The translations under genes were made by a program, and so were the position numbers. A DNA stretch of 64,000 nucleotides, taken from Octopus vulgaris (taxonomy: Eukaryota). The notes under the pieces were generated by a model that did not search any database, was not told where the DNA came from, and saw only the letters and a program-made list of their open reading frames with translations. The stretch spans positions 44,764,001-44,828,000 of the forward strand of contig OX597825.1 in NCBI GenBank assembly GCA_951406725.2, in the 5' to 3' direction. How positions within the stretch are numbered: position 1 is the stretch's first letter; the number at the start of each line of letters is the position of its first letter. Below, in pieces: positions 15,600-38,895 of the stretch.

Positions 15600-18130
15600 T
15601 ACTATTATTATTAAAATTAAATTAAATTCAAAGTTAGCAAACACTGAAATTTCAAAATTAAACCGGAATAACTGCGACGTCATCAGTCTTCGTTTTTTCA
15701 CAAAAGGTAGCAGAAGGAAGGAAAGGAAAAAAAAAACAAAAAGAAAGAAAAGAATTGAAAAAAAAAATTGTTCACTCAAAATTATAGTATAAATATGGTG
15801 GAATTCCTCCAAGCTGAGATGTCAAGAGTTCACAAATATATATTTATCCTCATGGGTTTTGAGGACTGAAAGTGCAGGGGAATGAGGGTGATTTTTGAGA
15901 ATGTGCACCTTCAGGTCCTCCTCAAATTTACACCCTTTTGATGTGAAATGCTCCACAAGTTCCGTGGATCGACTGTTATTGCACCTGACGTCGTACCTAT
16001 GCCCATTAAATCTTTTTTGTAATCGTTCTGTTGTGCAACCAGCATAAATCATTTTGTGTTTAATGCATTCCACTGCATGCACCAAATGGGAATCTCTACA
16101 GGTCTCTCCTTCTGTATCAATCATAACATTTGTTATAATTCTTGCTGGAATTGGTAAGGCTCGTGTTATTGCACAACGAGCAGGGTGTTTTGGGTGGTAT
16201 AGCGTTCAGAAACTCCAATGGACCTTTTATTAACGACACTGGTGAATATTTCTCTAATATTTCTATTACGTCTAAAGGCTACAATATGCAGAAGAGGAAA
16301 TATTTGTCGGAAATGAGGATATTTTTCTGAAACATGCTGGTAACTGTCATACAACACTTTTGAAATGCCAACGAAACTTCGGTGCCAGTTAATCAATAAA
16401 GGAATTCGGTCATAAACTCTTTTCTGACTGCTAAAATTAGGCGTGAAAATTTGATCACCACTAATTTCAGCTATGTCATTCGCAATTTCCTTTGATCTTG
16501 ATTCATTATAACCGCGCTTTACATAAAAGGCGCACCAAAGTATTTGCCTATTTCCAATAATCCCCAATGTCTTATCCTCAAAAACTAAGATTTTGGATTT
16601 TATCTGATTGTATAATGTGGATGATCATAGCGGCGGTGGAGATAAATATGGGATGACTGTTCGGCCTTCCGAAAACTTGACTTTTGTGTCCTAAAATTAG
16701 ACGCTAGTATTTGAAAAGCTCGACGTGAATTTTATCTTGGACTTAAAACCATAGTCTTCTGCGAAGCAGTCACAGAAATTTAAAAAATGACTAAACTAAC
16801 CTGTTTTCCTTCCCAGACAAAAGAAAGGCGTCGTCAATGAACCATAAGCAGAGTATAGGTTCGTGATCAGGCAGAGATTTAGATGTCTCCATTAATTGCG
16901 TTTCAAATTTTGTCATGAAGGCATTTGCGAAATTAACTGCCATAGGGGTACCCATGGCGCATCCCTTCGTTTGATGGAAACATTTTTTCTCCAAACTTCA
17001 TTGTGTTACTTTGTATGCACAAATTTTAATAATTCACAGAGAAACTTTGAAGGAATACTTTTCTTTGACGATTTTTCAAAGGCTTTCATGCATGCTTCCA
17101 CCCCAACATCGTGATCGATGTTGGGGTATAAGGAACAAACATCCATGGTTACAAAAAAAAAACGGTCTTTAACACTACTTCGGTGTTTAGAAAATTTGTT
17201 CAATTTGGAAACAAAATCAAAAGTTTCCCGAATGTAGGAATTTGATCTTTCAGCTACTGAGAGCAGAAAGCCATCCAAGCATTCTGAAATTTTAGCAATG
17301 CATTCATACCCAGTGCAAATTGGGCGCAATTATGGAAATTTTTCGAATTTTTTATGTATTTTTGGAAGACCGTAAAATACAGATGTTCTTCTTTCTGAAC
17401 GTAATAGCTTAGATTCCATGTCATTTATAAAATTCTTTTTCTACATTTCCAAAATTATAAGTTCCTCTCTGTAATTGGGGTTTGGATCTACAGGTAGTTC
17501 TTCATAAGTTTTGTCAATTAAAACTTCTTCACAAGCTGAAATGTACTCGTTCTTGTCCATAATTATAATAGCACCTCCTTTATCCACCATCTTAATAACA
17601 ATAGAATCATTGTTTGCTAGGCGACGGAGTGTGCTACGCTAGGAATCCGTAAGGTTAACCAGCTCTTTTTCCTACAGGAAATTCCTATCTAACAAGATTT
17701 GAGAAATTCCAACAGTGCTTGTGAACGTCCGGATACCAATTTGGATTCTTTAAAATCCAATTATGCCAGATCCGATCATCATCATTTCTTTCAACAAACA
17801 TGGGATTTTCAGACTCCCCGTTACCAATTCTTTCAAACAAAATGTTCTTGAAGCTTGTGACGGTGGACAAACTGATATAATCCTTGTGTTCATTTATTTT
17901 TGCCAAAATTCTTAGTGCTTGGGCAGAAACTAAGTCCAAGTTCTAAGACAGAGATATCGTCTGGTGAAAGTTTTAACTTTGATAAATTTATTGCCGTCTT
18001 ATTTTCTAACATGGTTGATTTTCTTGGTCTAGAGTTTTCCTTAGCATTACTTGCATCATATTTTTTACTCTCTTTTTGGGGGCTTTGATGGAAATCCTCA
18101 CTTAAAACATGGAATCTGTTAGGTGTCAAA
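15600..18130 (-). mobile_element. Penelope-like element (N-terminal region, RT, GIY-YIG), frameshifted
   Basis: AINLSKLKLSPDDISVLELGLSFCPS; VIKMVDKGGAIIIMDK; FVTMDVCSLYPNIDH; QTKGCAMGTPMAVNFANAFM; WFIDD; VECIKHKMIYAGCTTERLQKRFNGHR. Confidence 0.92.
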
Positions 18131-18225
18131 AATGCTGTTGATAATTTTGTGAAGGGTCACAACTTCTACTCGTCTTTGTCGATGTAACCCATATCTGGGT
18201 GGGTGATAAAAAGTGTGTGACTTTT

Positions 18226-18543
18226 TTAGTTTTTGTTGGCATTTGAAACATTTTCTTTTTTTAGAAAAGGAACAAATTTATTGTCCTCAAGCCATTTTTG
18301 ATTGATCAAATAGAAACTTTTTTCTGGTGAGTTTCCAATGACCTGTTCAAATGCGTATGCTAGCGCAAAAAGACCACAATCGTACGGACCAGCCTGGGGA
18401 TTAATTATTTCAACTTGTTTAATTGTAGGTGTTATGTTGTTTTGTGGCGAGTAGAGAGTAATTATCTGCGTGGTTAGTTCTTGTAAGATGGATAAATTTA
18501 AACTGTCATATACATAGACGTCTCCGAAAATTTTAATTTTCAT
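18226..18543 (-). pseudogene. Ulp1/SENP (peptidase C48)-like cysteine protease fragment
   Basis: VYVYDSL (catalytic Asp region) and PQAGPYDCGLFALAYA (oxyanion Gln + catalytic Cys). The catalytic His is not visible. Confidence 0.75.
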
Positions 18544-18803
18544 ATTATAATTTGGGCTTGGCTCAGGTTCAGTCTTATTCCTGGTAGGAATTATGTGGAT
18601 AGCTCATAGTTCATTGTTTTCTTGCTTTTTATTTTTTGTTTCATTTTTGTTTATATTTTTTCTTTTCGTCAAGTCATTTAGTGTCCAGTTAGGAATATTA
18701 TAACTATAACTTATAAATGGGACAGCGAGATTATTGATGCCTCTTACCTTATTTTTCTGACTTAAGCATTAATCTAATTCGCTTATAATATTCCTTCCTC
18801 AAA

Positions 18804-19210
18804 GGCGGCGAGCTGGCAGAAGCGTTAGCACGCCGGGCGAAACACTTAGCGGTATTTCGTCTGCCGCTACGTTCTGAGTTCAAATTCCTCTGAAATTTGC
18901 CTTTCATCCTTTCGAGATCGATTAAATAAGTACCAGTTACGCACTAGGGTCGACGTAATCGACTTAACCCCTTTGTCTGTCCTTGTTTGTCCCTTGTTGG
19001 CAATAAAGACATAAGAAACGTTAGCCTGCCGGGCGAAATGCTTAGCGGTATTTCGTCTTTACGTTCTGAGTTCAAATCCCGCCGAGGTCGACTTTGCCTT
19101 CCATCCTTTCGAGGTCGACAAATTAAGTACCAGTTGCATACTGGGGTAGATCTAATCGACTGCTTCCTCCCCTAAAATTTCGGGCCTTGTGTCTAGAGCA
19201 GAAAAGAATA
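18804..19210 (+). mobile_element. SINE dimer (same family as 1-1017)
   Basis: GGCGGCGAGCTGGCAGAAGCGTTAGC...GAGTTCAAAT...CATCCTTTCGAG occurs twice. Confidence 0.88.
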
Positions 19211-19549
19211 TTCCTTTCTCATCTTGTTTGCTTTGTGTTTGGTGTACACTGACTAGTCAATCCAGTTCACTGATTCCTGGGTATTTGTTTGAGTTTGGTC
19301 TAATTATCTTATTTGAATTTCTTTATCTAGTATGATAAAACTATAGTAGTTAGTTTTAGTCTCTTCAAGGTTGCTTTGGCGCATTTTTCTGATAGAAAAC
19401 CGTTAGTGGAGAGAAGGAGTCTCTTTGGATTATTCCTCTTCTAATGGGGATGGATTTAGCTTTATTTTATTTCCCTCTTTTGTCTTTTGCTGCTGAACTG
19501 ATCACCATTTCCTCATGATAAATGTTTTGTGTATTATTTTCCTCATGGC

Positions 19550-20570
19550 TAGTATTTTCAGAATCCACATGATGGCAGTGGGAAATGCTCAGAACATCTT
19601 TTGTTTCTGCAGTTTTCAATTGTGAGTTTCTCTTCTTCTGGAAACATGTTGTTTTCTTCCATATGTCTGCTTACTGTCAGTGATATTAATGCAGGTAAGA
19701 CTTTGTTAAGTGGCAGAGGTACATAATATGGGTTTGTAGTTTTGTGGGTGTGTGATTTCATTAGATTTGACAATTAAAATTATTTTCCTTTCGTTGTGTC
19801 TAGGGAGAGTCATTAAGCCAATATTAATAACACACGCACTTGTTCAATTCCACTCTTTTATTATTAGTCAATTGGTTAAATATCCGACTAACTAATCGAG
19901 TGTTTGTTTAACTTGGTTAAACAGTTAGTCGTTTGTTTGGGTTTTGTTTGTCTTGTTTTTTTCGTCAAAGGTCTTTCGTTGCTATCTGCAACCCTTCTAG
20001 TGGCTTTTATTTTAGTCTGTTACGCGTTTGTCGTCTGTCTGAGACCTTGATGCGTGCGAGTGTTTAACCAAGTTACACAAACAAACAAATAGTTAGTTGG
20101 ATATTAAACTAAATGACTAATGATAAAGGAGTGGAACTGGACCAGTGCATGTGTTATTAATATTGGTGTAATGACTCTCCCTAGACACCATAAAATTTGT
20201 TTGAACACACGAATTATCTCATTCCCGTCAGCGTATCACTAAACTTCTCGTCCAACTCCTTATCTGTCCTTGTTAAATAATTTAATCAAAAGTTGGGGAT
20301 CTTGTCGCTTCCTGGTGCCTTCCATTTGTTTGATTTTTGCAGAACCTGGTTTATTTATTCCGTTATTATGAGTGTCCAAGTTTGTTCAAGTGCTGAGTTT
20401 ATTGTTTTGTTCAATATTTTCCTGCGTGATTCCTTCGCAGCCTTTAATGCTTCCAGAAATACTTCTAATTTTGTTGGTAATATCTTCTGCATTGATCTCT
20501 CTATTTTATTTTAACCAAGTTAAATATCTGAGGGAGTATCGGCTTTCCTTTGTGACTACAGAAGTTGCTA
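19550..20570 (-). mobile_element. R4/Dong-like RT N-terminal relic interrupted by a MITE
   Basis: WKAPGSDKIPNF at ~20290-20325 and RHMEENNMFPEE at ~19630-19670. Confidence 0.6.
19795..20188. mobile_element. MITE-like element with ~130-bp diverged terminal inverted repeats
   Basis: GTGTCTAGGGAGAGTCATTA...ACTTGGTTAAAC versus GTTTAACCAAGT...TAATGACTCTCCCTAGACAC. Confidence 0.8.
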
Positions 20571-20714
20571 CATATTTTATTTAGCCTGTTTATGTTGATG
20601 TTTGTATCTGTTATCATTAAGCCTGTGAACGTCAAATTTATGTATTCCACTGTAACTAGGTACATAAAATCTTCGAACAGACGGTCAGTAGCGACACGTG
20701 CGGGTCTGACTACG

Positions 20715-20755
20715 CTGCATTGATAAAGGGCAACAACCCTGAAACATGTCTGCAG
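20715..20755 (+). ncRNA. Minimal type I hammerhead ribozyme, U3:A8 variant
   Basis: CTGCA-TTGATAA-AGGG(CAACAA)CCCT-GAAAC-AT-GTC-TGCAG; all three stems pair; GUC cleavage triplet. Confidence 0.85.
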
Positions 20756-20932
20756 ATGTCTGACTAGCAAGGTGAAGCGGCTGACCTCCCCTGTTCGAAG
20801 GTTGTAATATGGTAGTCTATAAATATAAGATTAAAGCTGTCGCTGATTAGCTAGCTATATGACACATGAACCTGTGTCCATTACAACCTTCGAACAGGGG
20901 AGGTGAGCCGCTTCACCTTGCTAGTCAGACAT

Positions 20933-20972
20933 CTCAGACACGTTCCAGGGTTGTTGCCCTTTATCAATGCAG
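20933..20972 (-). ncRNA. Inverted copy of the U3:A8 hammerhead, degenerate (GGAAC)
   Basis: Minus strand: CTGCA-TTGATAA-AGGG(CAACAA)CCCT-GGAAC-GT-GTC-TGAG. Confidence 0.65.
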
Positions 20973-21862
20973 CGTAGTCAGACCCGCAGGTGTCGCTACT
21001 GACCGTCTGTTCGAAGATTTTATTTACCTAGATACAGTGGAATACATCCACTGTTCGAAGGTTGTAATAGACGCAGGTTCGTGTGTCATATAGCTAGCTA
21101 GAGGCGATGGCCTCTTGGAGCTAATCAGCGACAGCTTTAGTGTTATATTTATAGACTACCATATTAGTATGGCGATAACTATTAATATCCAGTAACGCTG
21201 CCGTAATCTCCTTTAGAGAGACTTAGTAATTTTAATATTTCTATTATATATATATATATATCAGGAATTATATTCTCCTTGATTTGACAAGTCATCTGTT
21301 TACAAGCTGACCACAGACGGACACACAGACACGGGCTCCTATCAGCTGCCTGACCAACAAAATCAGCAGTTCTCTTTCTCTCTACCCGCTGCCTGACAGA
21401 CTCCCACACATACACAGGCGCGCACACACATACATGTAGGTAGGGTCCCACACCTATATAAGATAGCCTTAATTCTTAAAACAATCCGAACATTAACTTT
21501 AGTTATACAGAATATATTCACACCCTTTGGTTTTCAGTATTTCTTCCACTACCAGGGTTGACCGCAGTCTGACCTTGATTTATTCCAACGGACTTTTTCG
21601 TCGGCCTCCACCCCCCCCCCTGACGTCAACGCATATTGAGAGACAGTTTTGTGCTTTTTCATGGGCTCCTAAGGAGCGTTTTGTTCGAATACCTTGCTGC
21701 GCATTTGTTTTGGATTTTTAAATTCCTGGATTTTCCTGAAGAGAATGCTGCAAAATGGTCTCCTTATTCAATCCGAATTTGGAAATTTGCGGCCTTTGAA
21801 ACATGTGTAGAAAATAATAAAAGGAATTCTGTAGCATCTTCGTTCAGCTCCATTTCTTCCCT

Positions 21863-21908
<46 letters not shown>

Positions 21909-21979
21909 GGCGAGAATACTCGTTATAAATATCACCCCAGTGGCCTAGCATATATAAAAAGTCAATAGACAACATATTC

Positions 21980-22207
21980 GTATTTCAAAATAGAAAATTG
22001 CCCTTTAACAGGTAATTTTTACATGCTAGAAATAGCAGCCCAAACACAGCCAAAAGCCACAATTTTATAGCAAATTTCGAAGTAAAGGTTTTTATTTTTC
22101 ATTTACTTCCGAATTTGCTATAAAATTGTGGCTTTTGGCCGTGTTTGGCTGCTATTTCTAGAATGTAAAAATTACTTGTTAAAGGGTAATTTTCTATTTT
22201 GAAATAC

Positions 22208-22208
<1 letters not shown>
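21980..22208. repeat. Inverted repeat, ~107-bp arms with ~15-nt loop
   Basis: CGTATTTCAAAATAGAAAATT...CGAAGTAAA versus TTTACTTCCG...AATTTTCTATTTTGAAATACG. Confidence 0.9.
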
Positions 22209-22252
<44 letters not shown>

Positions 22253-22340
22253 CAAGGAAAAATTGTAAAAATGCAGAATGCTAAATTGAAAGAAAATTTT
22301 AATGAAATGAGAAATTCATAAAATATATAAATATATATTA

Positions 22341-22380
22341 ATTCAAACCGGTTTTCGTCATAATGTGACTTTTCAAGAAT
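22341..22380 (-). ncRNA. U3:A8 hammerhead-like motif
   Basis: Minus strand: ATTC-TTGAAAA-GTCA(CATTA)TGAC-GAAAA-CCGG-TTT-GAAT; weak UUU cleavage triplet. Confidence 0.6.
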
Positions 22381-23174
22381 TGTTAGGTAAAAATTTTTTT
22401 TTAAAGTGAGAAAGGGGAAAAAAGAAAATTGCATTGTTTTTTGCAAAAGAATAATAATAAATATGTACAAAAATTTTTAAATAAGTACTCCGATACATTG
22501 TGAATTCTTTGTGTATCTTGAGTTTAATGATTGTTCACGAAAAAATTACCTTGAAGTATTAGGATCCAATGGGATTAAAACCATGTGTTGTTTAGTTTAA
22601 TTAAGGATGTTGGCAAAACAGGAAGTAGTAGTAATTGTAGTTCTTCAGTTCCTGTGTTGTGAATAAGGGGAGACAACTCTTTTGAGTTCTTCACTTTGTG
22701 TTTATCAACTTTTTGTAATAATTTTTTGCATGCTTAAAACCGTTAATTGAAAGGACCAATGAAACAAATCCATTTTTAAAGGTGTCTACTTCTACTAGTT
22801 TTGATTATAACGTTATTTCTGTTCCATTACAACAAAAGTGTCCGACGAATGGGAACGTGAACCTCTGAATAACAGCTTTTGTTATATTTCTGCTGATTTT
22901 AAATAAAACATATTACTCTACCTCTGGTATTTGAGTACTCTTTTTTCCACCTTGTCCCACACATCTTATTTCACATTTATGTGCTTACTCCGGTGTATAT
23001 ATATATAACGTAAAGTATACTAGCCAACTCAATATGGCTAACCACTAAGGGTGGGTGTTACTGTAGCTTTTAGCCCCAGGAGATCATCGTCTCCAGCTGT
23101 CTTTAGGCACACTTTCTTTGCACTTATGGTATTTGCAAAGGAAGGTCATCCCTCTCTCGTAAACCCAAGTGATA

Positions 23175-23219
23175 CGCACGGACTGCAGTTTCGAGGTATT
23201 TGCCTCTTGTCAACGTACG
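23175..23219 (-). ncRNA. Minimal type I hammerhead ribozyme, U3:A8 variant
   Basis: Minus strand: CGTACG-TTGACAA-GAGG(CAAATA)CCTC-GAAAC-TGCA-GTC-CGTGCG. Confidence 0.88.
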
Positions 23220-23346
23220 GTAATCACCGGTTTTCGATGAAGAGAGACCTGTTTGCAAATATCTATTTAAGGTTTTTCCCAGTAACTACTGTCACTGATT
23301 TCGAAAAACTGTCTGCAAGCAATAATAAATCTCTGAACGTGATTAG

Positions 23347-23391
23347 CGTACGTTGACAAGAGGCAAATACCTCGAAACTGCAGTCCGTGCG
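23347..23391 (+). ncRNA. Minimal type I hammerhead ribozyme, U3:A8 variant
   Basis: CGTACG-TTGACAA-GAGG(CAAATA)CCTC-GAAAC-TGCA-GTC-CGTGCG. Confidence 0.88.
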
Positions 23392-23543
23392 TATCATTTA
23401 GGTTTACGAGAGAGGGATGACCTCCCTTTGCAAATACCATAAGTGCACAGAAAGTGTGCCTAAAGCCAACTGGAGACGATGGCTAGTATACTTTACGTTG
23501 TCGAGCGGTAAATGTTTACATCTCGTTCAGAGATTTAGTATTG

Positions 23544-23613
<70 letters not shown>

Positions 23614-23701
23614 GGAGAGCACAAGAATGAGACCTGGATATTAGATGAACAGAGGATTATTTATGTACGGTATAATTCAGAAAAGACAGTAAGTTATCAT
23701 T

Positions 23702-23760
23702 ATAGTACTCGGAGTCTCGAATGTCGGAGCGAAGAGATACGATGCATTCTCGTCGGCTAT
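23702..23760 (-). ncRNA. Degenerate hammerhead motif in a solo pLTR-like repeat
   Basis: Minus strand: ATAG-CCGACGA-GAATG...CATTC-GAGAC-TCCGA-GTA-CTAT; stems intact, core mutated at two positions. Confidence 0.55.
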
Positions 23761-24065
23761 TAACGGCAATAGATGCTATGAAAAACCGTTGAATAAAAGG
23801 GAAGTTACTCTATTAGGTAGGAAAATAAAGAAGATAAAAAATACACGCAAACTTATTCTCACAATACATAGACATAAACCGCCTGTGTACATAACGTCTA
23901 CATACGTAGACACACAAGCATGTATACCTACATATACATACATATCCACACACGCATATATGTATATGTATGCACATTGTACGCATATGTGTACACAGGT
24001 TTTTGCATACATACGCATAACATAAAACATATATTTAGAATCTTATACATATAAATATACGTATA

Positions 24066-24122
<57 letters not shown>

Positions 24123-24138
24123 GCATACATTCATACTC

Positions 24139-24244
<106 letters not shown>

Positions 24245-24729
24245 GCATACATTCATACTCCCGCAAGCACGTATATACATATATATATGTACACACACAC
24301 ATATAAATATATATACATCCTCCTATCACACACATACAACCGCACATATACAAACATATGCATATCCGCATAAATGAAGGGAACGTGTGCATGCAAGTTG
24401 CACTTATTCACCGGACACAGTCTTACACTCATATACATACACATACACATATATACACACGCACGCACATAAACATATAAGATATACACATACATATACT
24501 CACACACGTACACATTCACACAATTAATAAGGAAAAAAGAAAAAATGAAAAAATACATATAAAAAATAGAAAATTAAAAGAAGTTAAGACATATGGGATC
24601 CTTGTGTAAGAACATAGTAAAAATATGGAAAGATGGCTCATCTGCAAAAGTTCCTTGGACCCCGCTACATGTCTAAATTCAAGAACTGAACTTTTTAGAT
24701 CATGTCTATATGTTACAAATAACCTATTA

Positions 24730-25212
24730 CGTTTTGGGCCCCACCAAGATCACGGAAGAACGTCTCTGAAAGACGATGAGCGATCTTGAAGACCTGAGCG
24801 TCACCACCAGAAAATTTATCAGCTCGACCATGAGGATCGTCGGAAGACAATCAACGACGTTTTGAAGCGCTCGAAAGAAGGCATCCGGCGAAAGTGATCG
24901 GATCTGAGGAGCGCGAACAATTGGATTCTTCACGACGACAATGCACCTTGTTACCGAGCTCTCCTCACTCGTGAGTTTCTCACCACAAACAACATGGTAT
25001 CACTTTCGCACCCGCCCTATTCACCAGATTTAGCGCCTGCAGAATTCTGTCTCTTACCCAAGATGGAAAAGCAGCTCAAAGGTCGCCGTTTTGACACCGT
25101 TGTCGAGATCCAGAGCAATTCACAGAAGATCCTCGACTCGTTTTCGGAAAACAACTTCCAGTCCAGATTCAAAATAGAACGCTGCACAAGGTGACTATTT
25201 TGAAGGCGATGG
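24730..25212 (+). mobile_element. Mariner transposase 3' fragment
   Basis: WILHDDNAP...HPPYSPDLAPAEF..LPKMEKQLKGRRF...GDYFEGD. Confidence 0.88.
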
Positions 25213-26172
25213 AACTTGCTACTCAACAGAGTAGAAAATTCCATCGTTCGAAATTATGGTGTAACTAAGTATTTAAAAGCAATCCCCATGTAGAACCAAT
25301 GTGGTAAAATATGAAATTATTGGAACCATGAATCACAAAACATTCTCTCCGACGTTTTTCTATACGACTTCAGTCCACACAAATTGAATAGAACTTGAGT
25401 TGTGATGGAATAAATTCCTAGCATCGAAAGGTTGAATAATCTCCATTACATGTATTCAGGACATTTTTCTCCCTTTTGTATATACAAACGTATATGTGTA
25501 TGTTTGTATCACTCGAACACAGAAACACAATCTCAACCATCTCAATCATGAATACATAGGCATATGCATACTCGTGCACATATATAAACGAAAATAACAT
25601 GAGATATATTTCAATAAATTATCGTAACATTTCAAATAGAATAACATTATCTATATAAACATAACTGTGCATATCTGTATGTATGTGGCTGTTTGCGCCT
25701 GTATGTAGTTTTATGCTGCTATATGTTCAGAAAAATGTGTTAAATTTTGATGGGCCTGATGCAGTAAAGTCCTTGACACAACCCACTTCAGCCTGAATTA
25801 AATTAAGAATATGTTCGCGTGTACGTTGAAGAACGTGTTGTAAAGGACATTATTAAATGCTAATATTCAAAGTACTTCTCGAAATCAGCAATAAACATCT
25901 GCTGATACAGAATACATTAAATTTATAGCACATATTTAGATTCTTTTCAGCTTAGTAATTTTTATAGTACTATCTTATCGAAACCCTATTGCAAATACCA
26001 TACTACAGGTAAATATCATATTTTCTTTATGTATATGTAAACGAATGTTTATGAATCTGTATGCGTGTGTATATGTGTTATTTGGATTTAATATTTGTGT
26101 GTGAATGTGCATGTTGTAGGTGCTTTGCATACATTGCAATGTTTATGTGTTTAAATGTTTCTGTTTTCGTAT

Positions 26173-26225
<53 letters not shown>

Positions 26226-28829
26226 ACGATTGAGTATGTGCGCTGGCGGTTGAATATATGTGGCTGTGTGATTATAGTGGCTGTGATTGTGTGTGTGCGT
26301 TTGTGATTTTGAATGTGTGAGATTGTGCGTGTGTTGTGCGTCTGAAGGGGAATGTAGAGTGGGGTAGGAATATTTTAAGACAGTTATTTAAGGATTTAGA
26401 CATGTACTAGCCACGAGTAAATCACCTATGCCTCTCTCCCTGAATATCACTTGCAACAATCGATAACTTTTTATGAAGACCGAATAGTTTGCAATTTGGG
26501 TGAATCAGCACCTGAAGTTATGAATTTACGCAGCATACCAATCATTTGAAGTATCCTGTAATAAAGAATTTGGACTTCAATGGAAAATGTATTTATGTAA
26601 ATTTTGATCTGGTAAATTTTGATAAGTGATGATCTGAAACGCAGGTTTGTGTAATTATCAATGTGTTATTCTACCAGCTTAATCGGAAGAGCTCTCTTTT
26701 GAATTGTATGCAGGAAATAAAAGAAATGTGTATGTGTTTTGAATGCATATATATTTTCATCATTGTTGTTATCTTTAATGAATATTGTTTTAATTTCTTA
26801 CATACGTTTCAATCGTAATAGTGCAACGTATTAGTTGCAATCCGAAGTTCAAAAGCAAAAACTGAACGACAGCACAAATGTTAGAGATTATTACTTGATA
26901 TGGGCATAACTTCTAAAGAAATTTCTGATTAATATTTACGAGGCAAAACTGTATCAGGTGTTCAAGAGTAAGCCAAATGTTAATCGATTTGATCGCAAGC
27001 CATTTCCACTCTCAAAAAAAAAAAAGAGTTCACGCTTGAAAGAGAACTGAATCCTTGAAACCAAACCCTAAAAAAGAACACGTAAAGACACTCAGGATTG
27101 ACCGTATTAATGTCAAACAAAGAAATGCAGAAAACATTGAAAGATGTACGAAAAGGGCATATTCCATTTCCCAAAATGTTCAAGCGATAGTGACCAGCAG
27201 CTTTTTTCAGATAAACCCATAACGATGAAATTTCTTTTAGTATGTGTAGAGAGTAGGGGAATGTAGAGTGGAGTAGGAATATTTAAGGTAGTGGGGTAGG
27301 AATATACATGAAATGTATATAGTCGGAACAGAAGAAGGAAAAATCACGCGACAGTTGGCTGCCTGATACGTTGATGTCGTGGTGTTTGATTCAATCTGAC
27401 ACAGAGTAACTTAAATTATATTTCATAAGGAAGAATTGAACGAAGAATTCCTTCAAACAAATATAAGAGCCATTTATACATTATAAACAAATTGTTGCAG
27501 ATGAAGCTAATTAGACGACATTCCATTTGGAGACGAAAGAGAATTATATGGAATTGACAGACGGGAATCAATGGTAACATTGATCTGATTCAGAGTGGGA
27601 AAATCCTGGGCTGGTTGAACCTTTATCTCGTTAGAATTTTGTATTTATATCACGTTAAGAAGGCCAAATGATGACCAGAGAAAAAGTTGCAAATACATTG
27701 TTTGTTAGTTGACTCATGAAATGAATTCGTTTTTACTATGCTTCAATCTCATTTTGAAGCAAAGTTTTAAAAGATCTATTCGTCAATAGTTGCCACAACA
27801 CGATTCGGCACAAATCAAACAGATAACATTTACTATATGGTATCTTCAGAGTATGCATTGTGAATTTAAGATTTAATAGAGATTTCTGATTTCGAATCAG
27901 GTCCTTACATTGCAAACTTGTGTTGAAATATCGCAAGAATTTAGATATCAATGATAGGTTAATAGTGCAAAAATCGCAGCTGAGTACAAGGCAATACAAA
28001 TGATATGAGTTAATGAAATTCTCCTGAATGCAGGAGCAACTTTCTGCCAGTTTTCCTAAACACATAGGTCGACGACGAAGTAAAGTAAATCTTGATGAGC
28101 CAACAAATTGGTAGTTCAAGTTTCTAGAAGTAGCTGCCAAATATTACTCAAATTAAACCGTACAGTCTTGAGAAGGAAAAACAAACTCAATAATATATTT
28201 CTAGATATGCAATGGACTGGAGAAGGCCTTATTAGTTATTGCAGGAATGCTTTTCAGGATTACCTGGGTGCTAAAAAAGAATGGAAGTGTTAATTATGCT
28301 GTTTCTCAGCATGAATATATCTATTGAAACGCTACGACGATCAAACCTGCATAGAGCCAGTGACGAGATACGACCTGCCAAACTTTTGGCTGACAATTCA
28401 ATCCCCTTCGGGTCCGATACGATAAAATTTACATTCTGAAAATTTGGCAATCATTTGCAATCGATCAATAGTTTCTGTCTATTCAGTTGGTTTGCACACT
28501 AAGGTCACATGACTACTGGAATCTTCCGGATTCTTGTTATTTTATTTTCACAAATTACGGACCCACAGACTGTATATATGAAACATATGTTAGTATAGTT
28601 TACCGTCGTCAGCAACCTGGGCACTATGAAACTAACAAGTGTTTTATTACTTTGGTGTTCTATTTCAAGTCTTAAAATAAGGCGTTAGATGCTTCGATGC
28701 AAGTTTTAACTAAGGCGTTAGTTGCATTAGCTATAAGAATAAAGGTGTTATGTAAGGTATATGTATGATGTGAGCCAAATATTTAAACGTTCCGGTATGT
28801 CTATTAAATGAATGTATTGTTTTCTGACT

Positions 28830-37993: not shown

Positions 37994-38634
37994 TTAATTC
38001 TTTATGAGATATAGACAGTGACTGCTCCGTAATATAAGGGATATTAGCCAACCGAATATGGCTAGGGACAGGGCAGGGTGGTGGGGGTGTCACTGTTGCA
38101 TTTAGCCCCAGGCGAACATCAACGTCACCAGATAGGCCTGACGCCATCACGGCGTCCTTTATCTTGCAAAGGGAGATCACTCACCAAGAAGCCGATACCA
38201 CCTGGGGCTAAATGCAACAGTGACACCCCCACCACCCTGCCCTGTCCCTAGCCATATTCGGTTGGCTAATATCCCTTATATTACGGAGCAGTCACTGTCT
38301 ATATCTCATTTAGAGAATTATTATTGCTGTCGAACGGATTTTCGAAATCAGTAAATGTATTTACTTGAAAATCCTTATATGTATCTTGCAAAGTTGGTCG
38401 TTCATCGAGAAGCGATGCCTACCACACGTTGATAATAGGCAACACACCTTGAAACCTAGGTCCGTGTGTGGTATCGGCTTCTTGGTGAGTGATCTCCCTT
38501 TGCAAGATAAAGGACGCCGTGATGGCGTCAGGCCTATCTGGTGACGTTGATGTTCGCCTGGGGCTAAATGCAACAGTGACACCCCCACCACCCTGCCCTG
38601 TCCATAGCCATATTCGGTTGGCTAATATCCCTTA
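37994..38634. mobile_element. Non-coding foldback element related to 23007-23499
   Basis: ~37994-38111 is inverted at 38202-38320; ~38037-38201 is inverted at ~38467-38634; shares TAGCCAA..AATATGGCTA and TTTAGCCCCAGG with the 23-kb element. Confidence 0.85.
38423..38468 (+). ncRNA. Minimal type I hammerhead ribozyme, U3:A8 variant
   Basis: CACACG-TTGATAA-TAGG(CAACACA)CCTT-GAAAC-CTAG-GTC-CGTGTG; first pair of stem II mismatched. Confidence 0.8.
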
Positions 38635-38895
38635 GATTAATTCTTTATTTTGTATATTTTCATCTGTCTTACCCGCTTATGATCTGGTGTTTGCTAAATT
38701 TCTCTAGAGAACATTCTTTTCTTTGTGGTTAGATCGTAGGTGATCTTCTTCTAGCATATTGGATGTCCACTTACTGGTCATCACTTATTATACGCATGTA
38801 ATACAATTTTTCTGAATTTTCAGATTTTTCTATATGCTAGGCTACTGGTATCTAACTTGATGTTAATTATATTAATATTCAATTTATCACCTTCA

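Follow-up and report, generated by a model that had tools for sequence, protein, structure and literature searches.

The window analysed here, a stretch of 64,000 nucleotides of the Octopus vulgaris genome (contig OX597825.1, positions 44,764,001 to 44,828,000), contains a non-coding foldback with a hammerhead ribozyme motif on each strand. This arrangement raises the question of whether the foldback is itself the mobile unit, or whether it results from the way in which a smaller unit is inserted. We favour the second answer. With a probability of about 0.78, the locus is one insertion of a 355-bp retrozyme, two partial copies of which were joined head to head by the protein of a Penelope-like element (PLE) priming both cut target strands on the same RNA.

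Structure of the insertion

The insertion proved longer than the ~490-bp unit (23007..23499) of the preliminary description. It spans 23007-23545 and consists of two partial monomer copies joined head to head, which we mapped on the natural monomer, m1 being the base after GUC. The left arm (23007..23343, - strand, 339 bp) is almost a whole monomer and runs from m195 round via the cut site to m174. Its outer end is tail-free and corresponds to the first of two fixed ends, E1. The right arm (23339..23545, + strand) runs from m308 via the cut site to m220, and its outer end is the second fixed end, E2. An internal deletion of ~56 bp (m97-m152) interrupts the right arm at a 4-bp GATG overlap (23478-23481). 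The last 46 bp (23500..23545, + strand) form a one-sided tail between E1 and E2, which had been overlooked. By alignment, the two arms meet in an imperfect overlap of ~5 bp (23339..23343). The insertion is bordered on the left by a (TA)n target remnant (22996..23006) and on the right by (TA)n (23546..23610), a microsatellite inside which a target-site duplication (TSD) is not resolvable.

Several features reported earlier take on another meaning with these boundaries. The ~140-bp inner inverted arms are real (23085-23227 and 23339-23481, 143 bp, 95% identity with 7 mismatches), and the 111-bp 'spacer' between them is left-arm sequence. The 20-bp inverted repeat is perfect, 23007-23026 being the exact reverse complement of 23480-23499, but it is not terminal, since its right copy is the right arm resuming past the ~56-bp deletion. 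The absence of coding capacity was confirmed (longest ATG-started frame in the insertion, 76 aa), as was the rod-like fold of 23007-23499 (-315 kcal/mol, z -26.6, none of 100 shuffles as good). The left flank (22830-23006) is another dispersed repeat, matching several loci at 75-88% and ending at the (TA)n of the insertion. A ~140-bp near-perfect hairpin further upstream, at 22023-22164, is probably a MITE-like element.

Hammerhead motifs

A descriptor search found a complete type I hammerhead in each arm, one per strand, at 23346..23392 (+) and 23175..23219 (-), as had been described. On both strands the motif is made of a TTGACAA core with a U3:A8 pair, a 4-bp helix II (GAGG/CCTC), GAAA, a palindromic helix III and the GUC site. 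The predicted cleavage sites, after C17 at C23385 (+) and C23181 (-), agree with those named before. The two motifs, said to be identical, have 46 of 47 bases in common but differ in helix I, which is 7 bp long on the + strand and 6 bp on the - strand. An Rfam scan of positions 18000-28000 at E<=1 gave no hammerhead match. It returned 46 matches, none reaching its own gathering score and all of them to hairpin or microsatellite miRNA models; the identification therefore rests on the descriptor and on the covariation reported below.

Helix III of the monomer was predicted to be unstable as a hairpin (+2.9 kcal/mol) and stable as a dimer duplex (-11.1 kcal/mol), the pattern expected for cleavage as a dimer. 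Helices I and II were predicted to form when either arm was folded by itself (P 0.85-0.99) or the monomer as a circle (P 0.96-0.98), as opposed to a P of 0.00 in the RNA of the whole insertion, whichever strand was folded. These predictions agree with the earlier suggestion that the antisense arm could mask the ribozyme. Because the head-to-head geometry places each ribozyme after its own antisense copy in the transcript, the locus is likely inactive. According to the folding model, the hammerheads of this foldback copy would be masked, which probably makes the locus a dead end.

The spreading unit is a 355-bp monomer

The unit that spreads is a non-coding, single-polarity monomer of 355 bp, devoid of any ORF. 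On C4, in this genome of 2.8 Gb, a tandem array of 10.2 x 355 bp with 99% identity carries the hammerhead motif in 10 of 10 units and lies between the copies of a 12-bp direct repeat, part of which coincides with the element end. The exact 37-nt motif matches the genome 62 times and a looser superfamily motif at least 3,529 times, as against 0 matches for a control motif. We examined 85 distinct loci of the window family. Their arms are head to head at 38 loci, tail to tail at 0 and in a single direction at 47; these counts omit array loci, and the hammerhead- or motif-based searches from which the loci were drawn enrich for longer copies. One locus (L173) was left out as a segmental duplicate of L166, the two (C1:22.18 and 21.14 Mb, respectively) lying in an inverted segmental duplication of at least 2.7 kb at 98% with the same insertion aboard. 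TSDs of 7-14 bp that are not simple sequence were found at 21 of the 85 loci, compared with 1.9 when flanks were swapped (maximum 7). The family thus comprises non-LTR elements with TSDs longer than 4 bp, a short non-coding unit in the 150-450 bp range and consecutive tandem units with complete hammerheads, as retrozymes do.

The preliminary description had assigned the element to a non-autonomous retrozyme family, related to PLEs, whose hammerhead has a U3:A8 core and a palindromic helix III. The family type was correct; the foldback taken as its unit has to be replaced by the 355-bp monomer. It had also considered that the architecture might be a one-off inversion, and an inverted arm is indeed missing at 47 of the 85 loci, but the 38 head-to-head loci mean that inversion recurs. 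Junctions vary from one head-to-head locus to the next, except for one identical pair and one pair at a reference artefact, and that of the window occurs at 0 of the other 37. The motif is present on both arms in at least 14 of the first 78 motif-defined loci on C1. Of 72 loci, only 4, whose junctions all differ, have intact hammerheads in both polarities. These differing junctions, together with the rarity of intact hammerhead pairs, indicate that the foldback is a recurring insertion outcome and not a replicating unit.

The same data bear on the idea that the ~490-bp foldback is the mobile unit, replicating as a viroid-like rod RNA of two polarities with a ribozyme in each strand. The stability of the rod speaks for it, as do the 4 loci with both motifs intact and the junction m69/m339, which is found at two loci with unrelated flanks. 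However, the monomer holds a single hammerhead, arrays are built from the monomer rather than from the rod, the terminal inverted repeat is a boundary artefact, the rod is predicted to mask both ribozymes completely, and the window junction is not shared. We therefore consider this reading largely refuted and highly improbable. At the two loci with the m69/m339 junction (L093/L150, C1:6.755 Mb; L152, C1:7.471 Mb) the E1 and E2 sides are swapped; the junction may be a hot spot, or a foldback may on rare occasions be copied again. Contigs assembled from runs guessed to be RNA cover the repeat and cross both cut site and unit junction; so do those of a run of unspecified type, which makes these contigs uninformative on expression or circles.

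Ribozyme variation among subfamilies

Homologous subfamilies carry a C3:G8, U3:G8 or U3:A8 core, and their helix III palindromes are CTGCAG, CTCGAG, CTATAG, CCTAGG or CCGG, with CATG in L067 and in a separate 362-bp family. The 3:8 pair was maintained in 13 of 13 representatives (UA 7, CG 4, UG 2). Among these, 11 of 14 pairs had changed on both sides, and the covariation score was matched by 0 of 500 shuffles, a result that is not a probability, the 13 rows being related to each other and chosen by core pattern. Slid controls scored far lower than the hammerhead alignment. Each unit therefore has one structurally conserved type I hammerhead, as expected of a retrozyme. The literature search yielded nothing usable on the kinetics of a U3:A8 core; its presumed activity is based on work on the 3:8 pair and on the covariation observed here. 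Natural homologous ribozymes with C3:G8, U3:G8 and U3:A8 form a ready set for kinetics. The U3:G8 subfamily is present at L176, L177 and L186. A young sister subfamily of 353 bp with the canonical C3:G8 core was found at L185 and 57 other loci (for example C1:70535600-70538600); it is represented by 407 exact motif copies and is also arrayed in tandem, with a 353-bp period.

Two fixed ends are paired one of each

The outward 3' ends of window-family copies (n=102) gather at two positions 46 nt apart, E1 (m169-175, 49 of 102) and E2 (m218-222, 34 of 102). At head-to-head loci with both ends canonical, one arm ends at E1 and the other at E2, without exception, in the window family (22/22) and in the C3:G8 sister subfamily (24/24). 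No E1+E1 or E2+E2 copy was seen among these 46 retrozyme loci, a count that leaves out loci with at least one non-canonical end (16 of 38 in the window family, 5 of 29 in the sister subfamily); end assignment is ambiguous at L026, L033 and L071. If each locus had a chance of 0.5 of showing one end of each kind, 46 out of 46 would be expected with a probability of 0.5^46 = 1e-14. Copies in a single direction favour E1 (31/44 and 22/27 in the window family and sister subfamily, respectively), which lowers the chance of one-of-each pairing to 42% and 30%. The rule extends to autonomous PLEs, at 6/6 loci where both ends could be seen (L296, L326-L328, L131 and L145). In all, 52 of 52 loci that could be scored obey it, from two subfamilies of retrozymes and two families of autonomous PLEs. 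A conserved stem-loop at E1 or E2 was not evident in the two monomer folds.

The two arms of an insertion appear to derive from one template. In the young sister subfamily they agree at 397 of 398 diagnostic comparisons, compared with 70.6% between loci, and they diverge by 0.68%, against 0.60% for tandem units and 1.63% between loci. In the window family, which is older, this test is weak, with 73% agreement between arms, 69% between tandem units and 57% between loci, and an arm identity of 95.5% versus 94.7% between loci. An origin of the two arms from different RNAs was rejected on the shared haplotypes of the sister subfamily. E1 arms read past the cut site in 51 of 56 cases in the window family and 46 of 49 in the sister subfamily. 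Because the cDNAs continue across the cut site and in many cases are longer than one unit, their template would have been either a circle or a multimer left uncut. The 5' ends did not accumulate at the cut site, nor at lengths of whole units.

Over-length arms are also informative about a different reading, which denies that a retrozyme replicates on its own and takes the copies for nothing more than 5'-truncated ends (solo pseudo-LTRs) left by an autonomous PLE yet to be discovered. All insertion marks are indeed PLE marks, and the PLE census scored only 150 of 6,136 GIY-YIG candidates. Yet the E1 arms that exceed one unit (17 of 56 for the window family, 35 of 49 for its sister subfamily) run into the next monomer and not into an ORF, a 10-unit array exists, and none of the loci read has a PLE ORF next to the element. 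We regard this reading as very unlikely.

A single template is equally compatible with fold-back or self-priming, whereby one cDNA (or an antisense RNA) doubles back to generate the inverted arm, after which the endonuclease resolves the intermediate at the second site, leaving a one-sided tail. Models of self-priming and of endonuclease resolution have been put forward for PLEs (Arkhipova 2013, PMC3846280; Craig 2021, PMC8557442). Under fold-back, too, the arms should be identical in haplotype and each insertion should have one tail; one arm could nest in the other at 26 of 46 loci, and breakpoints are nearly symmetric at L068 (155/155). At the other 20 of 46 loci (13/22 in the window family, 7/24 in the sister subfamily), however, neither arm can be copied from the other, each holding sequence that its partner lacks in contiguous form. 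A hand check placed the window's own arms in this non-nested class. Deletions in old copies may distort the nesting test; for the 7 of 24 loci of the young sister subfamily, resection after fold-back is the remaining escape. Junction breakpoints are asymmetric with short overlaps, and RT start sites observed in vitro already explain both ends (PMC11167929). The non-nested arms argue against simple fold-back copying, which we judge unlikely. Taken with the one-of-each end pairing and the shared arm haplotype, they favour priming of both target strands on one RNA.

Candidate mobilising elements

GIY-YIG and PLE protein searches revealed two young PLE families with intact ORFs encoding RT together with a GIY-YIG domain at the C terminus (781 aa and 775 aa, 46% alike), both with near-identical copies (L126-L145, L296-L330), and beside them a diverged fragment (L144). 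Copies of the 781-aa family are 95-99% identical and have a U3:A8 hammerhead-like core near the 3' end and a ~35-bp tail. The 775-aa family has many identical copies, and no hammerhead-like U3:A8 core was found in its 3' region. In both families the tail is one-sided and the ends are (TA)n. A terminal repeat homologous to the monomer was not found at any autonomous PLE in the set of GIY-YIG loci compared (150 of 6,136 candidates scored). Retrozyme matches near the PLE loci L138/L296 and L311 are located outside the PLE ends and have the appearance of independent insertions, and no PLE ORF is enclosed by the widely spaced same-strand hammerhead pairs at L256 and L257.

The window insertion comprises an inverted 5'-truncated copy, a one-sided tail and an AT-rich target, as found for copies mobilised by PLEs, and its unit lacks the RT and GIY-YIG ORF of an autonomous EN+ PLE. 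It was very likely mobilised by a PLE. We infer this partner without assigning it to a family, because no terminal sequence is shared and only 150 of the 6,136 GIY-YIG candidates were scored.

Proposed insertion mechanism

In the priming scheme that we favour, a PLE RT-endonuclease, probably a dimer, would cut both strands of an AT-rich target. A single RNA, either circular or multimeric and uncut, would be the template for both target 3' ends, one of which would prime at E1 and the second at E2. The two cDNAs would then be extended toward the RNA 5' end via the ribozyme site, stop at variable points and be joined head to head by short overlaps; if a single cDNA survived, the product would be an ordinary 5'-truncated copy or a tandem one. 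For the hammerhead, a role in monomer or tandem copies is likely, through the predicted dimer cleavage followed by circularisation. More generally, it is on balance probable that an asymmetric PLE complex primes the two cut strands at two different fixed RNA sites (on a circle, in the case of retrozymes), the head-to-head repeat and the one-sided tail being marks of the same step. If so, retrozyme copies constitute a genome-scale record of the PLE integration step.

Priming of the second target strand on the same RNA is known from L1 twin priming, where it also produces a head-to-head 5' inversion. The second priming site is variable in L1 and the arms do not overlap, whereas in the octopus element both sites are fixed and the arms overlap, as would follow from a repetitive or circular template.

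Comparison with published systems

Endonuclease-bearing PLEs share with the octopus element the head-to-head inversion, a tail at a single end, an AT-rich or (TA)n target, TSDs of ~8-12 bp and two start sites delimiting the tail (PMC3846280; PMC8557442; PMC11167929). The main text of Arkhipova 2013 (PMC3846280) and Craig 2021 (PMC8557442) describes inverted 5'-truncated pLTRs with a one-sided tail. According to the main text of Frangieh 2024 (PMC11167929), an anole PLE cuts and extends both strands in vitro, two RNA start sites delimit the tail, a dimer is predicted, the start site is alike on both strands and ribozyme cleavage is dispensable. The octopus element differs from these PLEs by the absence of an ORF, by its tail (46 bp vs 30-40 bp) and by the lack of sequence homology to the PLE families compared. 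Strict one-of-each end pairing or same-template arms were not found stated in the passages considered here from the PLE and retrozyme literature searched, subscription journals lying outside that scope.

The closest relatives are animal non-LTR retrozymes, to which the window element belongs; it is neither an autonomous PLE nor a viroid-like RNA of two polarities. Resemblances include a ~350-bp non-coding unit (350-390 in mussel, 331/353 in axolotl) with one type I hammerhead whose helix III is short and palindromic, copies that number in the thousands and occur singly or in tandem, long TSDs, co-resident PLEs and a stable predicted circle, with z -5.0 for the octopus monomer (PMC7229834; bioRxiv 10.64898/2026.07.22.740005). 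The octopus family is distinguished by its U3:A8 core and by frequent head-to-head insertions with two fixed ends, which the passages considered here from those reports do not describe. Animal retrozymes of similar size were defined, with cleavage and circles, by Cervera and de la Pena 2020 (PMC7229834), and retrozymes were tied to PLEs by Li, Clavereau and Pollet 2026 (bioRxiv 10.64898/2026.07.22.740005), who found that 1 of 9 tested dimers cleaved. RNA circles and cleavage have been demonstrated for those families; for the octopus family both are predicted. Both reports argue for mobilisation of retrozymes by PLEs from co-occurrence, shared motifs and phylogeny. The PLE-type insertion marks on retrozyme copies seen here also support it.

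Neither of the two features that first drew attention to this locus is new, as the U3:A8 core and the opposite-strand pair were both published by Cervera and de la Pena in 2014 for PLE hammerheads of Schistosoma mansoni (PMC4209133), with ~1,300 hits for the U3-A8 covariant core and opposite-strand pairs 100-700 bp apart. The Schistosoma motifs are minimal with a long helix II, in contrast to the canonical helix sizes of the retrozyme monomer. The window element is ordinary for a PLE-rich animal genome, and its value is mechanistic, carried by the end-pairing rule. Self-priming, endonuclease resolution and two start sites compete as models for the origin of PLE head-to-head repeats and one-sided tails. 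One-of-each pairing, shared arm haplotype and non-nested arms discriminate among them and make a direct prediction for the in vitro PLE system.

Other hammerhead insertions in the window

A second hammerhead foldback insertion lies at 20640-21170 of the window. It belongs to an unrelated-looking family of ~362 bp with a U3:A8 core and a CATG helix III, and an intact hammerhead is present on the + strand at 20720-20750. This family has 138 exact motif copies in the genome and a tandem period of 362-363 bp at L235, L248 and L249. A diverged relative (68%) of the 355-bp family, likewise a head-to-head insertion, occupies the interval 37995-38640; its core is U3:A8 and its helix III CCTAGG.
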